Shown in pieces: positions 4,917 to 29,820 of a DNA stretch of 64,000 nt; the stretch's first letter is position 1, and every line of letters begins with the position of its first letter. Source of the stretch: Escherichia phage REP4. Below the pieces are notes generated by a model that did no database searches, was not told where the DNA came from, and worked only from the letters and a program-made list of their open reading frames with translations. The position numbers and the translations under genes were made by a program. Location: the sequence record OQ174503.1; one strand, 5' to 3'.

Positions 4917-6730
4917 TGGTGTTTAACCCTATGCATGATTTCTTTATTTTTGCCAAGATTAAATCCGCGTTCGTTCGGATTTCCCAAATAACCACAAGTT
5001 CTTCTTATTGTGTTCATCTTTTTAGGATCAGTTTCTCCACAAATAGAACAAACAAATCCGTTTTCAGTAGGAGTCATTTCATGGGTACTTCCACACGTAA
5101 AACATTTATCTACTGGCATGTTAACACCAAAATAATCTAAATGTTGTGCAGCATAATCCCATACAGCCTCAAGACCTTTTAGGTTATTTTTCATATCAGG
5201 AAGTTCAACATAAGAAATGTGACCGCCTGTCGCAATGAAATGATATGGGGCTTCGCGAGAAATCTTTTCAAACGGAGTAATATTTTCTTCTACTGAAACG
5301 TGGAAACTGTTGGTGTACCAGCCTTTATCAGTAACATCCTTTACACTTCCATATTTTTCGGTATCAAGTTTACAGAAGCGATAGCACAGGTTTTCAGCAG
5401 GAGTAGAATACAAACTAAAAGCAAAACCAGTTCTTTCAGTCCACTGCTTAAGACGAGCATTCATTTTAGTTAAAATTTCTTGTCCAATATCACGACCGAC
5501 AAGAATATTCAATTCGTGAATACCAATGTATCCTAGGGACACTGAACTTCTACCGTTTTTAAATAACTCAATTATGTCGTCGTCAGGTTTAAGACGAACC
5601 CCGAATGCACCTTCTTGGTAAAGAATAGGAGCAACAGTCGCTTTAACTCCTTTTAAGGAACTAATTCTACACATCAAAGCTTCAAAACATAAATCCATTC
5701 GTTCATTGAACAATTCGGCAAATTTCTGTTCATTGAACTGTGTTCCAGTATAAGAATCTAACGCAATACGAGGAAGATTCAGTGTTACAACACCAAGATT
5801 ATTACGTCCATCAAGAATTTCATTACCAGTCGAATCTTTCCATACACTCAAGAAACTACGACAACCCATTGGAGAAACAGGAATAGATGAACCGGTGATA
5901 GCTTTATTGTTCTTAGCCGAAATGATGTCAGGATACATTCTTTTGCTTGCACACTCTAAAGCAAGCTGCTTAATATCATAGTTCGGATCGTCTTTATAAA
6001 GATTAACACCCTCTTCAACGAACATAACAAGCTTAGGGAAAATAGGAGTTATCCCATCACGACCAAGGCCTTTAATACGATTTTTCAGAATTGCTTTCTG
6101 AATCATTCGTTCAGTCCAGTCAGTTCCCGTACCAAATGTAATTGTTACAAAAGGCGTTTGTCCGTTTGAACTAAAGAGAGTATTTACTTCATATTCATAA
6201 GCTTGGAACGCATCGTATACGTCTTTTTCTGTTTTAGACTGGGCGTAATTCAACGCATCAGCGATTTGCCATTTTTCTGCATCCTCAATATGTTTTGCGT
6301 AGGTGCGTTTAACATAAGGAGAAAGGACTTTATCTACATTCGCAAAAGTCGTTCCGCCATATTGATGGGAAGCAACCTGCGCAGTAATTTGTGCCATAAT
6401 TGCAGTAGCAACGCCAATTGATTTAGGAGTTTCAATCTGTGCATTACCGAGCTTAAATCCGTTCTCAAGCATTCCTTTTAAATCTACTAAACAACAATTA
6501 GTAAATGGAAGAGCAGGAGAATAATCAATATCATGGAAATGGATAATTCCGCTTTCATGCGCTTTCATAATAAAAGACGGGACCATATTTTTGGCAATGT
6601 GTTTAGACACAATACCAGCCATAAGGTCCCGTTGAGTTGGAAAAACACGAGAATCTTTATTAGCATTCTCGTTTAAAAGGTCTTTATTAGTTTTATGAAT
6701 TAATCCTTCAATTTCTTTTTCAATTGTCAT
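4913..6730 (-). CDS. nrdD: anaerobic ribonucleoside-triphosphate reductase, uninterrupted
   Basis: 605 aa; C-terminal glycyl-radical motif RRTCGYLG and Zn-ribbon cysteines; contiguous ORF with no intron. Confidence 0.95.
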   Translation of the reverse strand: MTIEKEIEGLIHKTNKDLLNENANKDSRVFPTQRDLMAGIVSKHIAKNMVPSFIMKAHESGIIHFHDIDYSPALPFTNCCLVDLKGMLENGFKLGNAQIETPKSIGVATAIMAQITAQVASHQYGGTTFANVDKVLSPYVKRTYAKHIEDAEKWQIADALNYAQSKTEKDVYDAFQAYEYEVNTLFSSNGQTPFVTITFGTGTDWTERMIQKAILKNRIKGLGRDGITPIFPKLVMFVEEGVNLYKDDPNYDIKQLALECASKRMYPDIISAKNNKAITGSSIPVSPMGCRSFLSVWKDSTGNEILDGRNNLGVVTLNLPRIALDSYTGTQFNEQKFAELFNERMDLCFEALMCRISSLKGVKATVAPILYQEGAFGVRLKPDDDIIELFKNGRSSVSLGYIGIHELNILVGRDIGQEILTKMNARLKQWTERTGFAFSLYSTPAENLCYRFCKLDTEKYGSVKDVTDKGWYTNSFHVSVEENITPFEKISREAPYHFIATGGHISYVELPDMKNNLKGLEAVWDYAAQHLDYFGVNMPVDKCFTCGSTHEMTPTENGFVCSICGETDPKKMNTIRRTCGYLGNPNERGFNLGKNKEIMHRVKHQ

Positions 6731-7200
6731 TTTAAACTCTTTCTAAGCTGCTTCTTAAATGAAGCTATTAATTGTGTTTTAGTGTCAGATTCATTATATT
6801 CAAATCCTCTTTGAAGCATCTCAGCCATCATTTCCTCTTTTCCTAAACGAGAAAATTCCTTTGATTTATCTCCAACAAAGTTAGGGTGAATATTATTTTG
6901 GGTGTAATCGGATTTTAAATAAGTAAGTAAATTTTCTAACCATTCAAGATAATCAACACCTTGTCCCTTTAAGCCAGAACGATTAAATTTATGCTTCATT
7001 TGACCTTCCGCAGCATTGCAAAGATTACAGAGCAATCCACGCACCTTTCCAGCTTTCGGTCCATTTAATTCATGGTCATGGTCAAGGTGATTAGCTTGAA
7101 CATCAGGATTTAGTTCTCGTTGGCAAATTAAGCATTTACCGTTTTGTGCATCATAAAATTTTTGTTTTTCTTCTTTGTACAATTTGCCAGTCAATAACAT
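6727..7200 (-). CDS. 49: endonuclease VII (Holliday junction resolvase)
   Basis: 157 aa, Zn-binding CxxC...CNLCN and HLDHDH motif; matches T4 gp49 length and sequence. Confidence 0.9.
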   Translation of the reverse strand: MLLTGKLYKEEKQKFYDAQNGKCLICQRELNPDVQANHLDHDHELNGPKAGKVRGLLCNLCNAAEGQMKHKFNRSGLKGQGVDYLEWLENLLTYLKSDYTQNNIHPNFVGDKSKEFSRLGKEEMMAEMLQRGFEYNESDTKTQLIASFKKQLRKSLK

Positions 7201-7249
7201 AATAAAACCCTTACCTTGAATAGATAAGGGTATTTATTATTTTCAAGTA

Positions 7250-7696
7250 TTAAAACGCTCGGTCAGAAAAAGAAATTTGAGTTTCAAGCCATTCAATATA
7301 TTCTGCCGCAGCTTGCATCAAATTTCCTTCATAACCATCGTTATTTTCTTGTGCAGCTAATTTAGCTAATGCATATGAAATACGTTCACCTTGAAAAGCG
7401 GCTTTAGGTTTATGAATAGTTTGATCAACTCGTTCTACAACTTCTTCAATTTCGCCATTTTCTACTGATTCAGTATTCCACAAGCACCAATACGTAATTG
7501 GCTTATCGTAGATGTTAATAATCTTTCCATCAGAAAGTTCAATTTCAATAATTCCAGTATCAGGTTCTATATCATCTTCACATTCTTTTGCAAGTTCACG
7601 AACTTTAAAGACAGTACCTGCACTAAGTTCAGGCCAGTAATTACACAGCCCTGTATCAGCACGATTAATTCTAAACCACTTATCTACTGTAATCAT
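7250..7696 (-). CDS. hypothetical protein at the T4 pin position
   Basis: ORF after gene 49; start refined to MITVDKWF..., which overlaps the stop of a small upstream ORF. Identity with pin not verified. Confidence 0.45.
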   Translation of the reverse strand: MITVDKWFRINRADTGLCNYWPELSAGTVFKVRELAKECEDDIEPDTGIIEIELSDGKIINIYDKPITYWCLWNTESVENGEIEEVVERVDQTIHKPKAAFQGERISYALAKLAAQENNDGYEGNLMQAAAEYIEWLETQISFSDRAF

Positions 7697-15671: not shown

Positions 15672-16685
15672 TCATTTATAATAACTTCGGTGGTTTTCAA
15701 GATAAACCCTCTCAAGGAAGTCATCCCAGAAACCCATGTCTACTTTTTGCTGCATACCGTTCTTAGAAGCTTCAATGGATGCTGCTTCTACTTGATCGAC
15801 CACATCTTCCAAAAACTCTTGAACAGTTTTAAATGGATGTTTACCCAGCTTCACGTCGAGAATAAATGGAGCGTCTTGAAGTGGATAAACTAAGTCACCA
15901 GTTTTGTAAATTTCCAATAGTTGGAGTCCACCACGGCAAGCATGACTAAGAGCTTTCCAGTCAATGCCCTCATTCGCTTCAGCCTTACGAGCACGTTCGC
16001 CGTATTCAGCATCTAATTTGTTCAGTGACTGCTTAAGCTCAATAAGAGAAAGTGTTGTCTGATATTTACGACCCAACACAGTGTAAAACGTTTGTGGACC
16101 TGTTTTCTCATGATTATGGAATACCCATTCGCAGAACTCGTTCTCTGGAAGACGATGCTTAATATCTTCAACTTTAGTTCGACGTTGCTTAATAGAACCA
16201 TCTTCTTGGTAATCAACCCATTGCTCAGGGATTTGATTAACTACTTTCAATACATCACGTAATGCGGCCAAACGAGAACCCTTAACACCATATTTAGAAG
16301 CTTGCTTGCGAACATATCCTAAATAGGATTTCATGTTAGTTGTATAAAACCGTGAACGATTGTCTTGAATAAACTTCCATACATCAGGCAAATCAGATTT
16401 AACTACCAGTTCAGGTGGAGTGTGGAGCATATCCAATGCTACAGTTTCACCATCTGCTGCTAATTTAAAGAAATATTTAAGACTGTATAGTTCATGGTCA
16501 ATATCATCTTTGGTGTTTTTAGATGATGTGTTGTTAGTGTTTTTACTCATATGCTCTTTAACATTTCCGATAAGAATATCACGAGCAGGAGGAACAAAGA
16601 TTTCTTTAAAATCTACATCAGATTCTGGAGTAGAAGTTCCATAAAGATGACTACCGAAATAGCTTTTCATTACTGTTTTCATCAT
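15672..16685 (-). CDS. predicted Pol-beta-superfamily nucleotidyltransferase
   Basis: 337 aa; N-terminal GS...DVD motif (YFGSHLYGTSTPESDVDF) characteristic of the minimal nucleotidyltransferase fold; 4-bp overlap with the ATPase gene. Confidence 0.55.
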   Translation of the reverse strand: MMKTVMKSYFGSHLYGTSTPESDVDFKEIFVPPARDILIGNVKEHMSKNTNNTSSKNTKDDIDHELYSLKYFFKLAADGETVALDMLHTPPELVVKSDLPDVWKFIQDNRSRFYTTNMKSYLGYVRKQASKYGVKGSRLAALRDVLKVVNQIPEQWVDYQEDGSIKQRRTKVEDIKHRLPENEFCEWVFHNHEKTGPQTFYTVLGRKYQTTLSLIELKQSLNKLDAEYGERARKAEANEGIDWKALSHACRGGLQLLEIYKTGDLVYPLQDAPFILDVKLGKHPFKTVQEFLEDVVDQVEAASIEASKNGMQQKVDMGFWDDFLERVYLENHRSYYK

Positions 16686-17143
16686 TCAGCCTTATATTCA
16701 ATAACAGGACATACTTTAGCTTTACGCGCTTTTAAAAATTCGACGATAATAGATTTCTTGGGTTGAATAGGAGGTAAACCTTTATATGCCCTATCAATAT
16801 TTTCTACATGTAAAGCATAATCCTTTTTCCATTTATAATCTTTATATTTTTCATGCAGTTGTGCAGGAATAACAAATGAACCGATAATAAGTAAAACAAG
16901 CAAAATAGCAAGTATAAATGCTGATGGAATAAGAGTCCATAAACTACCAAAAATAAGCCATTTCTGCATGATTTCTGCGCAGATGATAGTTAGACCTGCG
17001 AGTATAGTACATCCGAAAAAAGAAACGAAAAATGTAGGAATAACAATAGACCAAAAATACGCGCACAGTGTCTTAGGTCGTTTCCATTCATCATTAAACA
17101 TTTTGAATAATTTATAGTGCCAAGAGCTTTCATTAATAATCAT
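16682..17143 (-). CDS. multi-pass membrane protein
   Basis: 153 aa with 3-4 predicted transmembrane helices and a basic C-terminus. Confidence 0.5.
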   Translation of the reverse strand: MIINESSWHYKLFKMFNDEWKRPKTLCAYFWSIVIPTFFVSFFGCTILAGLTIICAEIMQKWLIFGSLWTLIPSAFILAILLVLLIIGSFVIPAQLHEKYKDYKWKKDYALHVENIDRAYKGLPPIQPKKSIIVEFLKARKAKVCPVIEYKAE

Positions 17144-26417: not shown

Positions 26418-27386
<969 letters not shown>

Positions 27387-27405
<19 letters not shown>

Positions 27406-27890
27406 TCAGTGATAAAATTATTTAAATTTTGAGTATATTTCTTTTCATCAAAAATCTTTTGCTGCCTACGTAACCGCCATGGCATTTCAATGAACACGCA
27501 CCATATTCCTGATAGTACTGCTGCTGTAAAAATATTAACAAGTATAATTAAAAGAATCCAATCTTCCGTTCTGCCTACTGGACTTTCTCCAAAGAAGCAA
27601 AATACAAATGATGTCACAGGAAAACTAATAATATACCACAGAATCATAATCTTATCTGTGAACCAATCAGCGTTCGTTAATTTAGCGCGACCATTATGAA
27701 TACACACGAATTTATCATCTGTTGCAGTAGATGGCTTAACTGGTTGATATCCCATTCTAAACTCCCTAATCAGCAAATTTTTCATATCTTCGGAACAGCC
27801 ATTCCAGTCAACTCTATCAACTGAAATGCCATCATCCCCGTCATCTAAATCATACCAGCGAGTTTTTAAAATCATTTGATTTTCCTGCAA
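27387..27890 (-). CDS. membrane protein, tandem paralog 1
   Basis: 167 aa; transmembrane hairpin; C-terminal motif FITECRKLK. Confidence 0.5.
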
Positions 27891-28234
27891 TCACTCACAA
27901 ACTCTTTCATTGATTCATTTTCAATATAAGACATGTAGCTATTATATTCTTTTAATTGTATTTTGTAATCCTTTTTTCTTTGCCAATTTATTTTAAAATT
28001 ATCATAATGAAAATATAGCATGGTACCAAAGAATGAAAATAATGAAATAATTTTAGTATAGCGAAGTTCACTCCAAACTTCTATTATATTTACTGTGCCG
28101 TCGATGTTTAAAATAAGACAGTCAATTAATAATCCAAAAAGACTACCCGCAAGAGCTGCAGCCAACGCCACAGCAAAAATTAAAAATGACTCAGGAAGCG
28201 AATATTTGACTTTATTTAGTTTTGGCTTTTGCAT
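27872..28234 (-). CDS. membrane protein, tandem paralog 2
   Basis: 120 aa; transmembrane hairpin; C-terminal motif FVSDCRKIK. Confidence 0.5.
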   Translation of the reverse strand: MQKPKLNKVKYSLPESFLIFAVALAAALAGSLFGLLIDCLILNIDGTVNIIEVWSELRYTKIISLFSFFGTMLYFHYDNFKINWQRKKDYKIQLKEYNSYMSYIENESMKEFVSDCRKIK

Positions 28235-28629
28235 CGTGATTCCTTAACAAATTTCATAATTTCATCAAATTCATACGCAGCAAGTTTAAGCTGATGTTCC
28301 TTTTTAATCTTTTTACACTGTGCTTTCCAATCACGTACGCGTTTACGATAATGCCTTCCTTGATACCAGTATCCTACCCAATTTACAGGTACTAATAAAA
28401 GTGGAACTATTAATGGAAGAATTAGCATTAACACAAGTATTTCGCCAGAATCAATATCAGTCATAACATCTAAAACACCTCCAATAATCAATAGAATTAC
28501 AAATGATATGAGTATAACAGGACCTATTAATACATCAGTAGGAATTAGCTGGCGCTTTAATTCATACTTCAAAGGTTTACTTGGAAGGTATAGTGATGGC
28601 TTTGACATATTCTCTACATTCCTTAACAA
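28216..28629 (-). CDS. membrane protein, tandem paralog 3
   Basis: 137 aa; two hydrophobic helices; C-terminal FVKESRCK. Confidence 0.5.
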   Translation of the reverse strand: MLRNVENMSKPSLYLPSKPLKYELKRQLIPTDVLIGPVILISFVILLIIGGVLDVMTDIDSGEILVLMLILPLIVPLLLVPVNWVGYWYQGRHYRKRVRDWKAQCKKIKKEHQLKLAAYEFDEIMKFVKESRCKSQN

Positions 28630-29185
28630 ATTTTTCTAGTAATAAATCACTTTCAAAATTAGGATTTTCCACTAATTTATCAAAAAGATCATCAACAATA
28701 TTCAAGATATTTCTTTTACTAAGAATACGTTTATTTTCATGCTTCGTTTCAGAATCAACTATAAGAGTAAAGAAATATTTCTTTCCCTGAAATTTTACTG
28801 TAGTATCAATATAGAATAAATTTGACTTTTGTAAGTTACGTTTAAACCATGCGTCACTTAAACTATAAACACCGAGATAATCAAAATCGTCGTTTAAATA
28901 ACAAACTGTCCATTCAGGAGAAATGAAATCAGTAAATTCAACATCAAAATCACATGTCAATAAATGAATTGATTCAATATTGTTAATAAGTATTCCAGGA
29001 CGTATTAAAGACTTTTTACCTCTGGAAAATCTTCCAGAAAGACTTTCATCAGTTTCATATGAAGAACCCCAATAATAATTACGTCCTTCTGCCATACGTT
29101 TAAGAGCATTTAGTAATTGATCTGGAACATCAACCTGTCTTTGGAACTCTTCAAACATTGAATTGAAATCACTTTGCATTTTCAT
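28577..29185 (-). CDS. hypothetical protein
   Basis: 202-aa ORF. Confidence 0.5.
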   Translation of the reverse strand: MKMQSDFNSMFEEFQRQVDVPDQLLNALKRMAEGRNYYWGSSYETDESLSGRFSRGKKSLIRPGILINNIESIHLLTCDFDVEFTDFISPEWTVCYLNDDFDYLGVYSLSDAWFKRNLQKSNLFYIDTTVKFQGKKYFFTLIVDSETKHENKRILSKRNILNIVDDLFDKLVENPNFESDLLLEKFVKECREYVKAITIPSK

Positions 29186-29226
29186 TCCTATTTACTCCAA
29201 GTAATAGGGGCCGAAGCCCCTTATCA

Positions 29227-29820
29227 TTATTTCAGAGAATTAATGTATTCCTGAACATCGGCAGAAGTAGTTTCAACCCCAGAAATATTACCGTTAAAGG
29301 TTTCAACTCGAGCAAGGGTATCTTCAATATCAACCTTAGTCAGTGCTGCAATTTCAACTACATCATCAGCAGTACTAATTCCAAGGGCATTTGCCGCACG
29401 AGTTTCACGGATATATTCCAATTTAACTGCAAGTTCTTGGCGAGCATCATCTAACTCAACTACTTTCTTAGCGATTTCAATTCGCATTTCGGCATAACCG
29501 TCAGCCTTAGTAGTCAACTGCTCAGCTGTTCGACGATATAGTAAACCAAGTTTAGCATGCATTGTTACATCTTGACCTTCGGAAAGAAGCTTGCGAATTT
29601 CACGCTCTTTTGATTCGGCCTGTCGATTCTTTTCGATAACAAGTTCACGAATACGTTTTTCTTCATTAATAGATTTAACGGAAGCAGTTTTTAGATCTTT
29701 AATTTTATCAAGTAGTTTTGCTGCTGCAGCAGTATACTGTTCTTCAACAGATAGATTTTTAGCCATAGCAGAACCAAGTTTAGTGCGAATAAAATCAACA
29801 ATTTTCTTCAGTGTGTTCAT
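29227..29820 (-). CDS. coiled-coil protein
   Basis: 197 aa, highly charged helical sequence. Confidence 0.5.

Follow-up and report, generated by a model that had tools for sequence, protein, structure and literature searches.

A C-terminal motif shared by small membrane and soluble proteins in the e region of T4-like phages

What do three consecutive, overlapping genes for small membrane proteins do in the early region of a T4-like phage, and are they copies of one another? The questions are raised by the genes e.4, e.3 and e.2 of Escherichia phage REP4 (OQ174503.1), which lie between positions 27387 and 28629 of the 64,000-nucleotide stretch analyzed here (the window). A previous description of this DNA, made from its letters alone (the sequence-only reading), had presented them as a tandem triplication of paralogous membrane proteins with a related motif at their tail ends, and had suggested a function at the cell envelope. 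The three open reading frames (ORFs) are the Tequatrovirus orthologues of T4 e.4, e.3 and e.2, which are already known as long-annotated, uncharacterised and non-essential ORFs of T4. A modest new lead is provided by their C-terminal motif, which is shared across membrane and soluble protein families.

The C-terminal motif

Among all ORFs of at least 40 amino acids on both strands of the window, the pattern F[IV]..C[RK] occurs three times, each time near a C-terminus: as FITECR in e.2, as FVSDCR in e.3 and as FVKECR in e.5, the gene that precedes e.4. It stands three residues from the C-terminus in e.2 and e.3 and 11 residues from it in e.5. The related motif noticed at the tail ends of the three membrane proteins is thus real and non-random, but it is not specific to them, as the soluble e.5 carries the strict form and e.4 only the variant FVKESR. 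When the pattern is relaxed, the only further matches are e.4 and short ORFs that lie outside this gene cluster. A motif common to small T4 proteins in general was considered and rejected, since the strict form is found nowhere else in the window.

The same pattern was counted in the window and about 50 related loci, whose ORFs give 1313 unique products. It occurs 100 times (many of these occurrences being orthologous, not independent), compared with 1.8 times in residue shuffles of the same products, and 99 of the 100 lie within 20 residues of the C-terminus. In T4-like phages the motif ends 25 BLAST-level clusters, 16 of membrane and nine of soluble proteins. Examples among the unrelated small soluble proteins that other T4-like genera encode in the same hyperplastic region are ...ELFIMQCRMRKTECC, ...NRFIKYCRGKHVS, ...KLFLEYCRSDVQL and ...MFIAKCRAK.

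An alignment of e.5 comprising 10 divergent homologues (13-47% identity) retains M1, N98, F186, C190 and R191 as its only invariant residues. Across the loci, the motif Cys is encoded by TGT 39 times and by TGC 35 times, and the Phe by TTT (79) or TTC (26); Arg codons of both families are used (AGA 38, AGG 15, CGT 20, CGC 16, CGA 6 and CGG 4). Because synonymous codons are mixed, and because F, C and R are among the only invariant residues of e.5, the motif is selected at the protein level.

These data bear on an alternative in which the motif has no protein function and is a by-product of overlapping translation-initiation regions combined with DNA repeats from duplication or gene conversion. 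Each motif does lie on or beside the ribosome-binding site of the next gene, either on its Shine-Dalgarno sequence and start codon or just before them; moreover, the junctions in the window consist of two pairs of 16-18-nt near-identical DNA repeats, and recombination between junction repeats does occur (see below). However, synonymous codons for F, C and R are used freely, including both Arg families, and the next start varies in position, from within the motif itself to over 40 nt away. Loci in which the following gene is not overlapped also have the motif, its hydrophobic F and I/V codons fall outside any ribosome-binding site, and F, C and R are almost the sole invariant residues of the e.5 family. 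A pure ribosome-binding-site artefact was rejected as sole explanation on the codon evidence and is largely refuted as such; a motif devoid of protein function is accordingly the least probable of the explanations discussed here.

The spacing of the motif residues, L(-3), F(0), I/V(+1) and C(+4), would place them on one face of a helix. The stretch is helical in a structure model of e.4 and is drawn helical in that of e.5 too (residues 181-196, where the predicted local distance difference test score, pLDDT, is below 50).

A strictly C-terminal position on many unrelated N-terminal bodies would also suit a turnover or targeting tag, read by a host AAA+ protease (ClpXP, Lon or FtsH) or by some other common processing factor, which would give the tagged proteins a shared timing of removal. 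The K/R-rich ends that follow the motif, such as CRKLK, VRRK and MRK, point the same way, and some ClpX substrates bear basic C-terminal signals. Members of the e.5 family, however, have 6-17 further variable residues after the motif, so that it is not at the extreme end, and the T4 e.3 protein accumulates late, not transiently. We regard a tag as very unlikely.

Hairpins, expression and family history

Kyte-Doolittle hydropathy and charge support the two-helix hydrophobic hairpin that had been proposed for e.2, e.3 and e.4. Two strong hydropathy peaks are seen in e.4 (2.85 and 3.04) and two peaks in e.2 (2.09 and 2.43), while e.3 has one strong peak and a shorter aromatic second segment that aligns with the second transmembrane segment (TM2) of the family. 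As N-termini and tails are rich in K/R and the loops are acidic, the positive-inside rule indicates an N-in/C-in topology for all three proteins. The e.4 loop contains no K/R and four D/E; its tail of 50 residues is basic (15 K+R) and helical and ends in FVKESRCKSQN. The e.3 tail ends in FVSDCRKIK, and the 28-residue tail of e.2 in FITECRKLK. An AlphaFold2 model of e.4, built from a 13-sequence alignment (pLDDT 72.6), consists of a helix at residues 24-48, a five-residue loop and one unbroken helix at residues 54-129, which runs from TM2 through the tail to the motif. Searched against known folds, this model found only its own orthologues in BFVD and nothing in PDB with E < 2. The proteins e.4 and e.3 are N-in/C-in inner-membrane helical hairpins in which TM2 runs on as a long basic cytoplasmic helix. 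The same hairpin-plus-tail layout is present in e.2 behind an extra cytoplasmic domain, a conserved soluble stretch of 75 residues (MIxKxxWxxxDDGDEGIS...VDWxGC...); the short N-terminal segment formerly ascribed to all three proteins is therefore wrong for e.2. Since e.2-e.4 encode inner-membrane proteins, an action at the envelope is reasonable. In the e.4 family alignment, S, I or V takes the place of the motif cysteine, and the tail keeps an invariant W94...C98 pair (WKAQC) located 22 residues upstream.

Assignment to the early region agrees with published T4 data, in which e.2-e.6 belong to the RNA class 'early' and all five proteins were detected, e.4 and e.5 as early, e.2 and e.6 as middle and e.3 as late proteins (PMC9697503 supplement). 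In a CRISPRi-ART screen of T4, e.2, e.3, e.4, e.5 and e.6 were each scored 'Not Fit' (PMC11879866 supplement), which we read here as no fitness defect on knockdown in the laboratory host. The genes e.2-e.4 are hence early expressed and dispensable in laboratory infection. A full-text literature search retrieved no statement on the function of e.2-e.5, only supplementary tables on expression and knockdown.

Expression and topology both bear on whether these proteins could be holin-like or antiholin-like lysis regulators encoded beside the endolysin gene e, with a class-II-holin-like hairpin and charged tail modulating lysis timing. They do resemble class II holins or pinholins in their small size, two N-in/C-in TM helices and highly charged C-terminal tail (by hydropathy and the e.4 model), as well as in lying near the endolysin gene. 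Furthermore, the linkage of e.2 to nudE-e is consistent across Tequatrovirus, Dhakavirus and Gaprivervirus, and comparable hairpin-nudE-lysozyme blocks are present in Roth34-like loci and in loci L039 and L046. Unlike class II holins, they are expressed early (the RNA is early, the e.4 protein early and the e.2 protein middle in T4), show no fitness effect on knockdown and match no holin family. In other genera, e.3 and e.4 stay together with e.5 and e.6 rather than with e. Lysis timing in T4 is explained by holin T and antiholin RI, and T4-like phages use the unrelated holin T. A role in lysis control is thus highly improbable.

As judged by sequence searches, the family is confined to T4-like phages: word-index searches gave matches in these phages only, and an exhaustive HMMER search of 1.84 billion representative proteins gave 11 matches, all of them T4-like phage proteins. 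In the examined Tevenvirinae-type loci and in Aeromonas phage 44RR2.8t.2, the highly conserved e.6 is followed by a soluble, e.5-like protein with the motif at its end. Between 0 and 4 hairpin genes come after e.5, depending on the group: none in several Dhakavirus and Aeromonas 44RR2.8t.2; one in other Dhakavirus, Kanagawavirus and some Klebsiella phages; two in Mosigvirus, Gaprivervirus and Moonvirus; three in Tequatrovirus, Klebsiella phage Roth34 and locus L033; and four in locus L039. Identity between the window and Mosigvirus is 88% for e.6, 55% for e.4, 47% for e.5 and 39% for e.3.

Within Tequatrovirus orthologues of e.2, e.3 and e.4, tail positions vary 4-7 times less than those of loops and TM segments (fraction of residues off the majority, 0.019-0.045 in tails vs 0.135-0.188 in loops), and all 11 columns of the e.4 loop are variable. 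Such a pattern touches on the superinfection exclusion named in the sequence-only reading, by which inner-membrane immunity proteins would block DNA entry or lysozyme action of later T-even phages. T4 Imm and Sp are small, early, non-essential envelope proteins, and e.2-e.4 of the same phage group are like them in all these respects: they are early-expressed inner-membrane proteins, dispensable for single infection in the laboratory. Their copy number also differs between genera, and variability among close relatives is greatest in the periplasmic loop and TM1, which is what an arms race of co-infecting phages would predict. No sequence-family link joins e.2-e.4 to Imm and Sp, which already account for T4 exclusion. 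At permissive thresholds, searches of Pfam, PHROGs, NCBIfam and PADLOC matched no exclusion-, holin- or defence-related family, and no match above threshold was obtained for e.2-e.6 in Pfam, NCBIfam or PADLOC (PF26873, PF26896 and PF26876 appear for these proteins only as precomputed labels). Because the tail is the most conserved part, the motif is common to soluble proteins, and the periplasmic loops vary and span only about 5-18 residues, the evidence argues for a conserved activity on the cytoplasmic side, which weakens a periplasm-directed exclusion role. Exclusion is unlikely on this balance.

The claim of three paralogs holds for e.3 and e.4 but not demonstrably for e.2. Pairwise BLASTP among the three proteins is weak (E 0.009-0.1), and profiles are needed. 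Comparison of family alignments by hhalign aligned e.4 with e.3 over the full length (92.4%, E 5e-7, 112 columns), compared with 0.4% for the reversed-sequence control and a top score of 23.5 in 120 reversed controls; a second run gave 89% (E 2e-6) over 46 columns, the whole tail. In the window, e.4 (2e-19) and e.3 (6e-13) are also picked up by a hidden Markov model (HMM) from which Tequatrovirus sequences were left out. By these profile comparisons, e.3 and e.4 are duplicates. The e.2 family matched the merged e.3/e.4 superfamily at 93.6% over only 15 columns, which are the motif; e.2 reached 79% over 19 columns with e.3 and 1.7% with e.4. Viterbi alignments of e.2 with some other hairpin clusters extend over 63-88 columns (61-67%) and score above all 120 reversed controls, with a local likeness after TM2 (IEMPWRLRR in e.2, FIPARLRN in other clusters). 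Since soluble proteins carry the same motif, the motif alone is no proof of common hairpin descent. The architecture and C-terminal module of e.3 and e.4 are present in e.2, whose common descent with them is only putative. Besides, Dhakavirus and Gaprivervirus have e.2 in a conserved block of its own, e.2-(78 aa ORF)-nudE-e, several kilobases from e.6-e.5-(e.4)-e.3, so that the adjacency of e.2 and e.3 in Tequatrovirus is not a local triplication. The tandem triplication is thereby reduced to the e.3/e.4 pair.

Copy number can be related to the gene junctions. The two pairs of junction repeats (A and B in Table 1) are unique to these sites in the window: repeat A has exactly two exact copies, and repeat B (TGCAGGAAAWTHAAATGA) has two copies vs 0.02 expected. 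One locus, L011 (about 6594-7400), has no e.2, and the junction at the end of its e.3 is a hybrid; the loss is explained by a crossover between the two copies of B, at TGCAGGAAA. Two further rearranged products were found, namely P0155 of phage vB_EcoM-UFV05, a 106-aa e.4::e.2 chimera that is in register and has its joint within TM1, at a microhomology of 6 nt, and P0167, an e.4 of 69 aa with its hairpin deleted. Short junction repeats, made of the motif codons and the ribosome-binding site of the next gene, are deletion sites as far as these genome comparisons show. The situation is reminiscent of PeSL modular shuffling (Arbiol et al. 2010, PMC2839356; Comeau et al. 2014, PMC4122927), where short conserved sequences are likewise repeated at the borders of non-essential genes in a hyperplastic region, and recombination between repeats removes or reshuffles whole genes. 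PeSLs, however, are non-coding cassettes of promoter and stem-loop, whereas the e-region repeat is coding, comprising the last codons of one gene and the ribosome-binding site of the next, with a conserved protein product. The e.3/e.4 duplication, the protein-level motif and the recombinogenic motif-plus-ribosome-binding-site junctions were not found in searchable papers.

A proposed docking role for the motif

Our preferred reading, to which we give a probability of roughly 0.4, is that the motif serves as a short helix-packing or docking element and would be the working end of these proteins. Differently anchored proteins, namely the membrane hairpins and the soluble e.5, would use it to dock, on the cytoplasmic side of the inner membrane, with one another or with a single common partner, and the hairpin would mainly be a tether. 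The purpose would be a host-specific accessory function of early infection, for example host takeover or counter-defence at the membrane level, rather than a core step of replication or lysis. The proposal is based on the combination of early, dispensable hairpins, a long helix whose terminal motif is under protein-level selection, the presence of that motif on the soluble e.5 of the same block, and a copy number that shifts by recombination at the junctions.

Several points weigh against a docking role. The partner is so far hypothetical, and e.4 lacks the motif cysteine. Part of the conservation, especially of the K/E/R codons, could be translational, given that each motif adjoins the next ribosome-binding site. 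The variable TM segments and loops could reflect diversifying selection on a periplasm-facing function, in which case the hairpin would not be a passive tether. In addition, neither the family searches (Pfam, NCBIfam and PADLOC) nor the fold searches with the e.4 model (BFVD and PDB) yielded a functional hint, and the structure model of e.5 (pLDDT 47) is too poor to use.

A wider version of the docking reading, which we consider doubtful, is that the hydrophobic-x-x-F-[IV]-x-x-C-R turn represents an undescribed short interaction module of T4-like phages, tying at least 25 otherwise unrelated early accessory clusters to one hub. A host factor could be the hub, as could the coiled-coil protein e.6, which is invariably adjacent. 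The e.5-e.4-e.3-e.2 block might then build a membrane-anchored hetero-oligomer whose composition is reshuffled between phages at the motif-encoding junctions. If the motif is indeed a common docking element, it would open up an entire group of T4 'dark matter' genes together, a single pull-down or motif mutant could be informative for many families, and the junctions would form a coding counterpart to PeSL-type cassette shuffling.

Gene models and neighbouring features

The window belongs to Tequatrovirus, and the 3.5-kb stretch around e.2-e.4 is 99.7% identical to Escherichia phage vB_EcoM_G50 and 95-97% identical to many other Tequatrovirus genomes. All genes of the region are on the minus strand in the order e.6, e.5, e.4, e.3, e.2, nudE, e, which is also the order in T4 and G50. 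Transcription runs from e.8 towards e; e.2-e.4 are thus upstream of nudE and e, and not downstream of them as had been described. The three consecutive overlapping ORFs were confirmed on the minus strand at 27387-28629, except that the outer end, 28629, belongs to a TTG-extended e.4 ORF without a ribosome-binding site, whereas the ATG starts of e.4, e.3 and e.2 are each preceded by a Shine-Dalgarno sequence. All four junctions of the block e.5-e.4-e.3-e.2-nudE overlap, and nudE has a longer alternative start at 27405. The coordinates are collected in Table 1.

Table 1. Genes, motifs, transmembrane (TM) segments, repeats and junctions of the e region and related features in the window
Feature	Coordinates	Strand	Remarks
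e.6	29227-29820	-	197 aa
Stem-loop GGGGC-UUCG-GCCCC	29206..29221	-	GC-rich; between e.6 and e.5; 5' boundary of coupled block; 'terminator' in G50 annotation
e.5	28577..29185	-	202 aa, soluble; heads overlapping gene block
e.4	28216..28608	-	130 aa; ATG start at 28608 as annotated in G50 and T4
e.3	27872..28234	-	120 aa; ATG start at 28234
e.2	27387..27875	-	162 aa; ATG start at 27875
nudE (Nudix hydrolase)	26950..27390	-	Last gene of overlapping block; PF00293, E 2e-12; T4/G50 annotation
Motif of e.5, FVKECR	28613-28630	-	Residues 186-191
Motif variant of e.4, FVKESR	28234..28251	-	Residues 120-125
Motif of e.3, FVSDCR	27884..27901	-	Residues 112-117
Motif of e.2, FITECR	27399..27416	-	Residues 154-159
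e.4 TM segments	28471-28533; 28369-28437	-	Residues ~26-46 and 58-80; hydropathy
e.3 TM segments	28109-28186; 28007-28054	-	TM1 residues 17-42, weaker TM2 residues 61-76; hydropathy
e.2 TM segments	27576-27650; 27474-27560	-	Residues ~76-100 and 106-134; hydropathy
Junction repeat A, copy 1, AAATTTGTTAAGGAAT	28618..28633	-	Encodes KFVKE of e.5; AAGGA Shine-Dalgarno for e.4
Junction repeat A, copy 2, AAATTTGTTAAGGAAT	28239..28254	-	Encodes KFVKE of e.4; Shine-Dalgarno for e.3
Junction repeat B, copy 1, TGCAGGAAAATCAAATGA	27872..27889	-	Encodes CRKIK-stop of e.3; AGGAAA Shine-Dalgarno and ATGA overlap of e.2
Junction repeat B, copy 2, TGCAGGAAATTAAAATGA	27387..27404	-	Encodes CRKLK-stop of e.2; Shine-Dalgarno and ATGA overlap of nudE
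Junction e.5/e.4			32-nt overlap
Junction e.4/e.3			19-nt overlap
Junction e.3/e.2			ATGA overlap
Junction e.2/nudE			ATGA overlap
Two-TM protein	16682-17143	-	153 aa; basic tail

PHROG profiles agree with these assignments. The e.4 product matches phrog_2604 over its full length (E 7.1e-71, residues 8-137 of the TTG-extended ORF), e.3 matches phrog_2330 (E 3.9e-60, residues 1-118) and, weakly but in full length, also the e.4 PHROG, and e.2 matches phrog_2203 'membrane protein' (E 1.7e-79, residues 6-165 of a 167-aa TTG-extended ORF). As in T4 and G50, e.3 and e.4 keep the family position between e.5 and e.2/nudE on the early strand; e.2 lies directly upstream of nudE, as expected for its family. 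The T4 orthologues of e.2, e.3 and e.4 (UniProt P32273, P32274 and P39222; PHROGs 2203, 2330 and 2604; newer Pfam entries PF26896 and PF26873) share order and strand and are annotated as 'conserved hypothetical predicted membrane protein'. T4 e.3 is 90% identical to e.3 of the window, and for e.4 the Tequatrovirus orthologues show 83-100% identity.

At least 80% of the e.2 protein is present in 527 phage records. In the T4 reference e.2 is a 102-aa stub, whereas in the window it is an intact ORF of 162 aa overlapping nudE, as it is intact in most other Tequatrovirus records. Compared with window positions 27387-27875, the T4 reference gene (NC_000866 67472-67960; L001:1973-2461) has a 1-nt deletion and, about 77 nt further on, a 1-nt insertion. 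Between this -1/+1 frameshift pair it is out of frame and contains stops, and in T4T it is annotated as e.2a and e.2b. The frameshift pair may be a genuine lesion of the laboratory strain or an old sequencing error.

Public records name e.3 and e.4 'sulfurtransferase', e.3 'DNA primase' and e.6 'host specificity protein', all of which look like propagated misannotations; family searches of Pfam and NCBIfam gave no support for the first two names. The product of e.6 is a strongly conserved coiled-coil protein whose gene is always directly upstream of e.5. A PspA/Vipp1 (ESCRT-III)-like identity of e.6 was considered and is unsupported, as there are only weak colinear PDB matches: residues 1-133 matched Synechocystis sll0617 with E 0.84 and Vipp1 with E 5.2. 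No PspA_IM30 match was found by Pfam in nine homologues, and hhalign of e.6 with a hand-typed E. coli PspA sequence gave 0.15%.

The stem-loop between e.6 and e.5 is a perfect hairpin without a good T-run after it on the coding strand, and its role may be in RNA stabilisation or processing and not in termination. A promoter scan gave no enrichment (19 found vs 19.6 expected).

Between an e.3-like gene and the e.2-nudE-e block, the genera Mosigvirus, Gaprivervirus, Dhakavirus, Kanagawavirus and Moonvirus carry another tandem array, made up of 3-7 small soluble paralogs (60-150 aa) that all end in G-x-W-[VI]-S-S-S-x-x-C (for example L003:3229-4023, L004:4191-5453 and L005:6022-7266, with equivalents in most non-Tequatrovirus loci); it is absent from the window. 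Elsewhere in the window, the two-TM protein at 16682-17143, whose basic tail contains …IIVEFLKARKAKV…, is the third-best match of an e.3/e.4 superfamily HMM, ahead of e.2 (E 0.001, 14.6 bits). It could be a distant relative, or the match could reflect a composition bias of TM segments.

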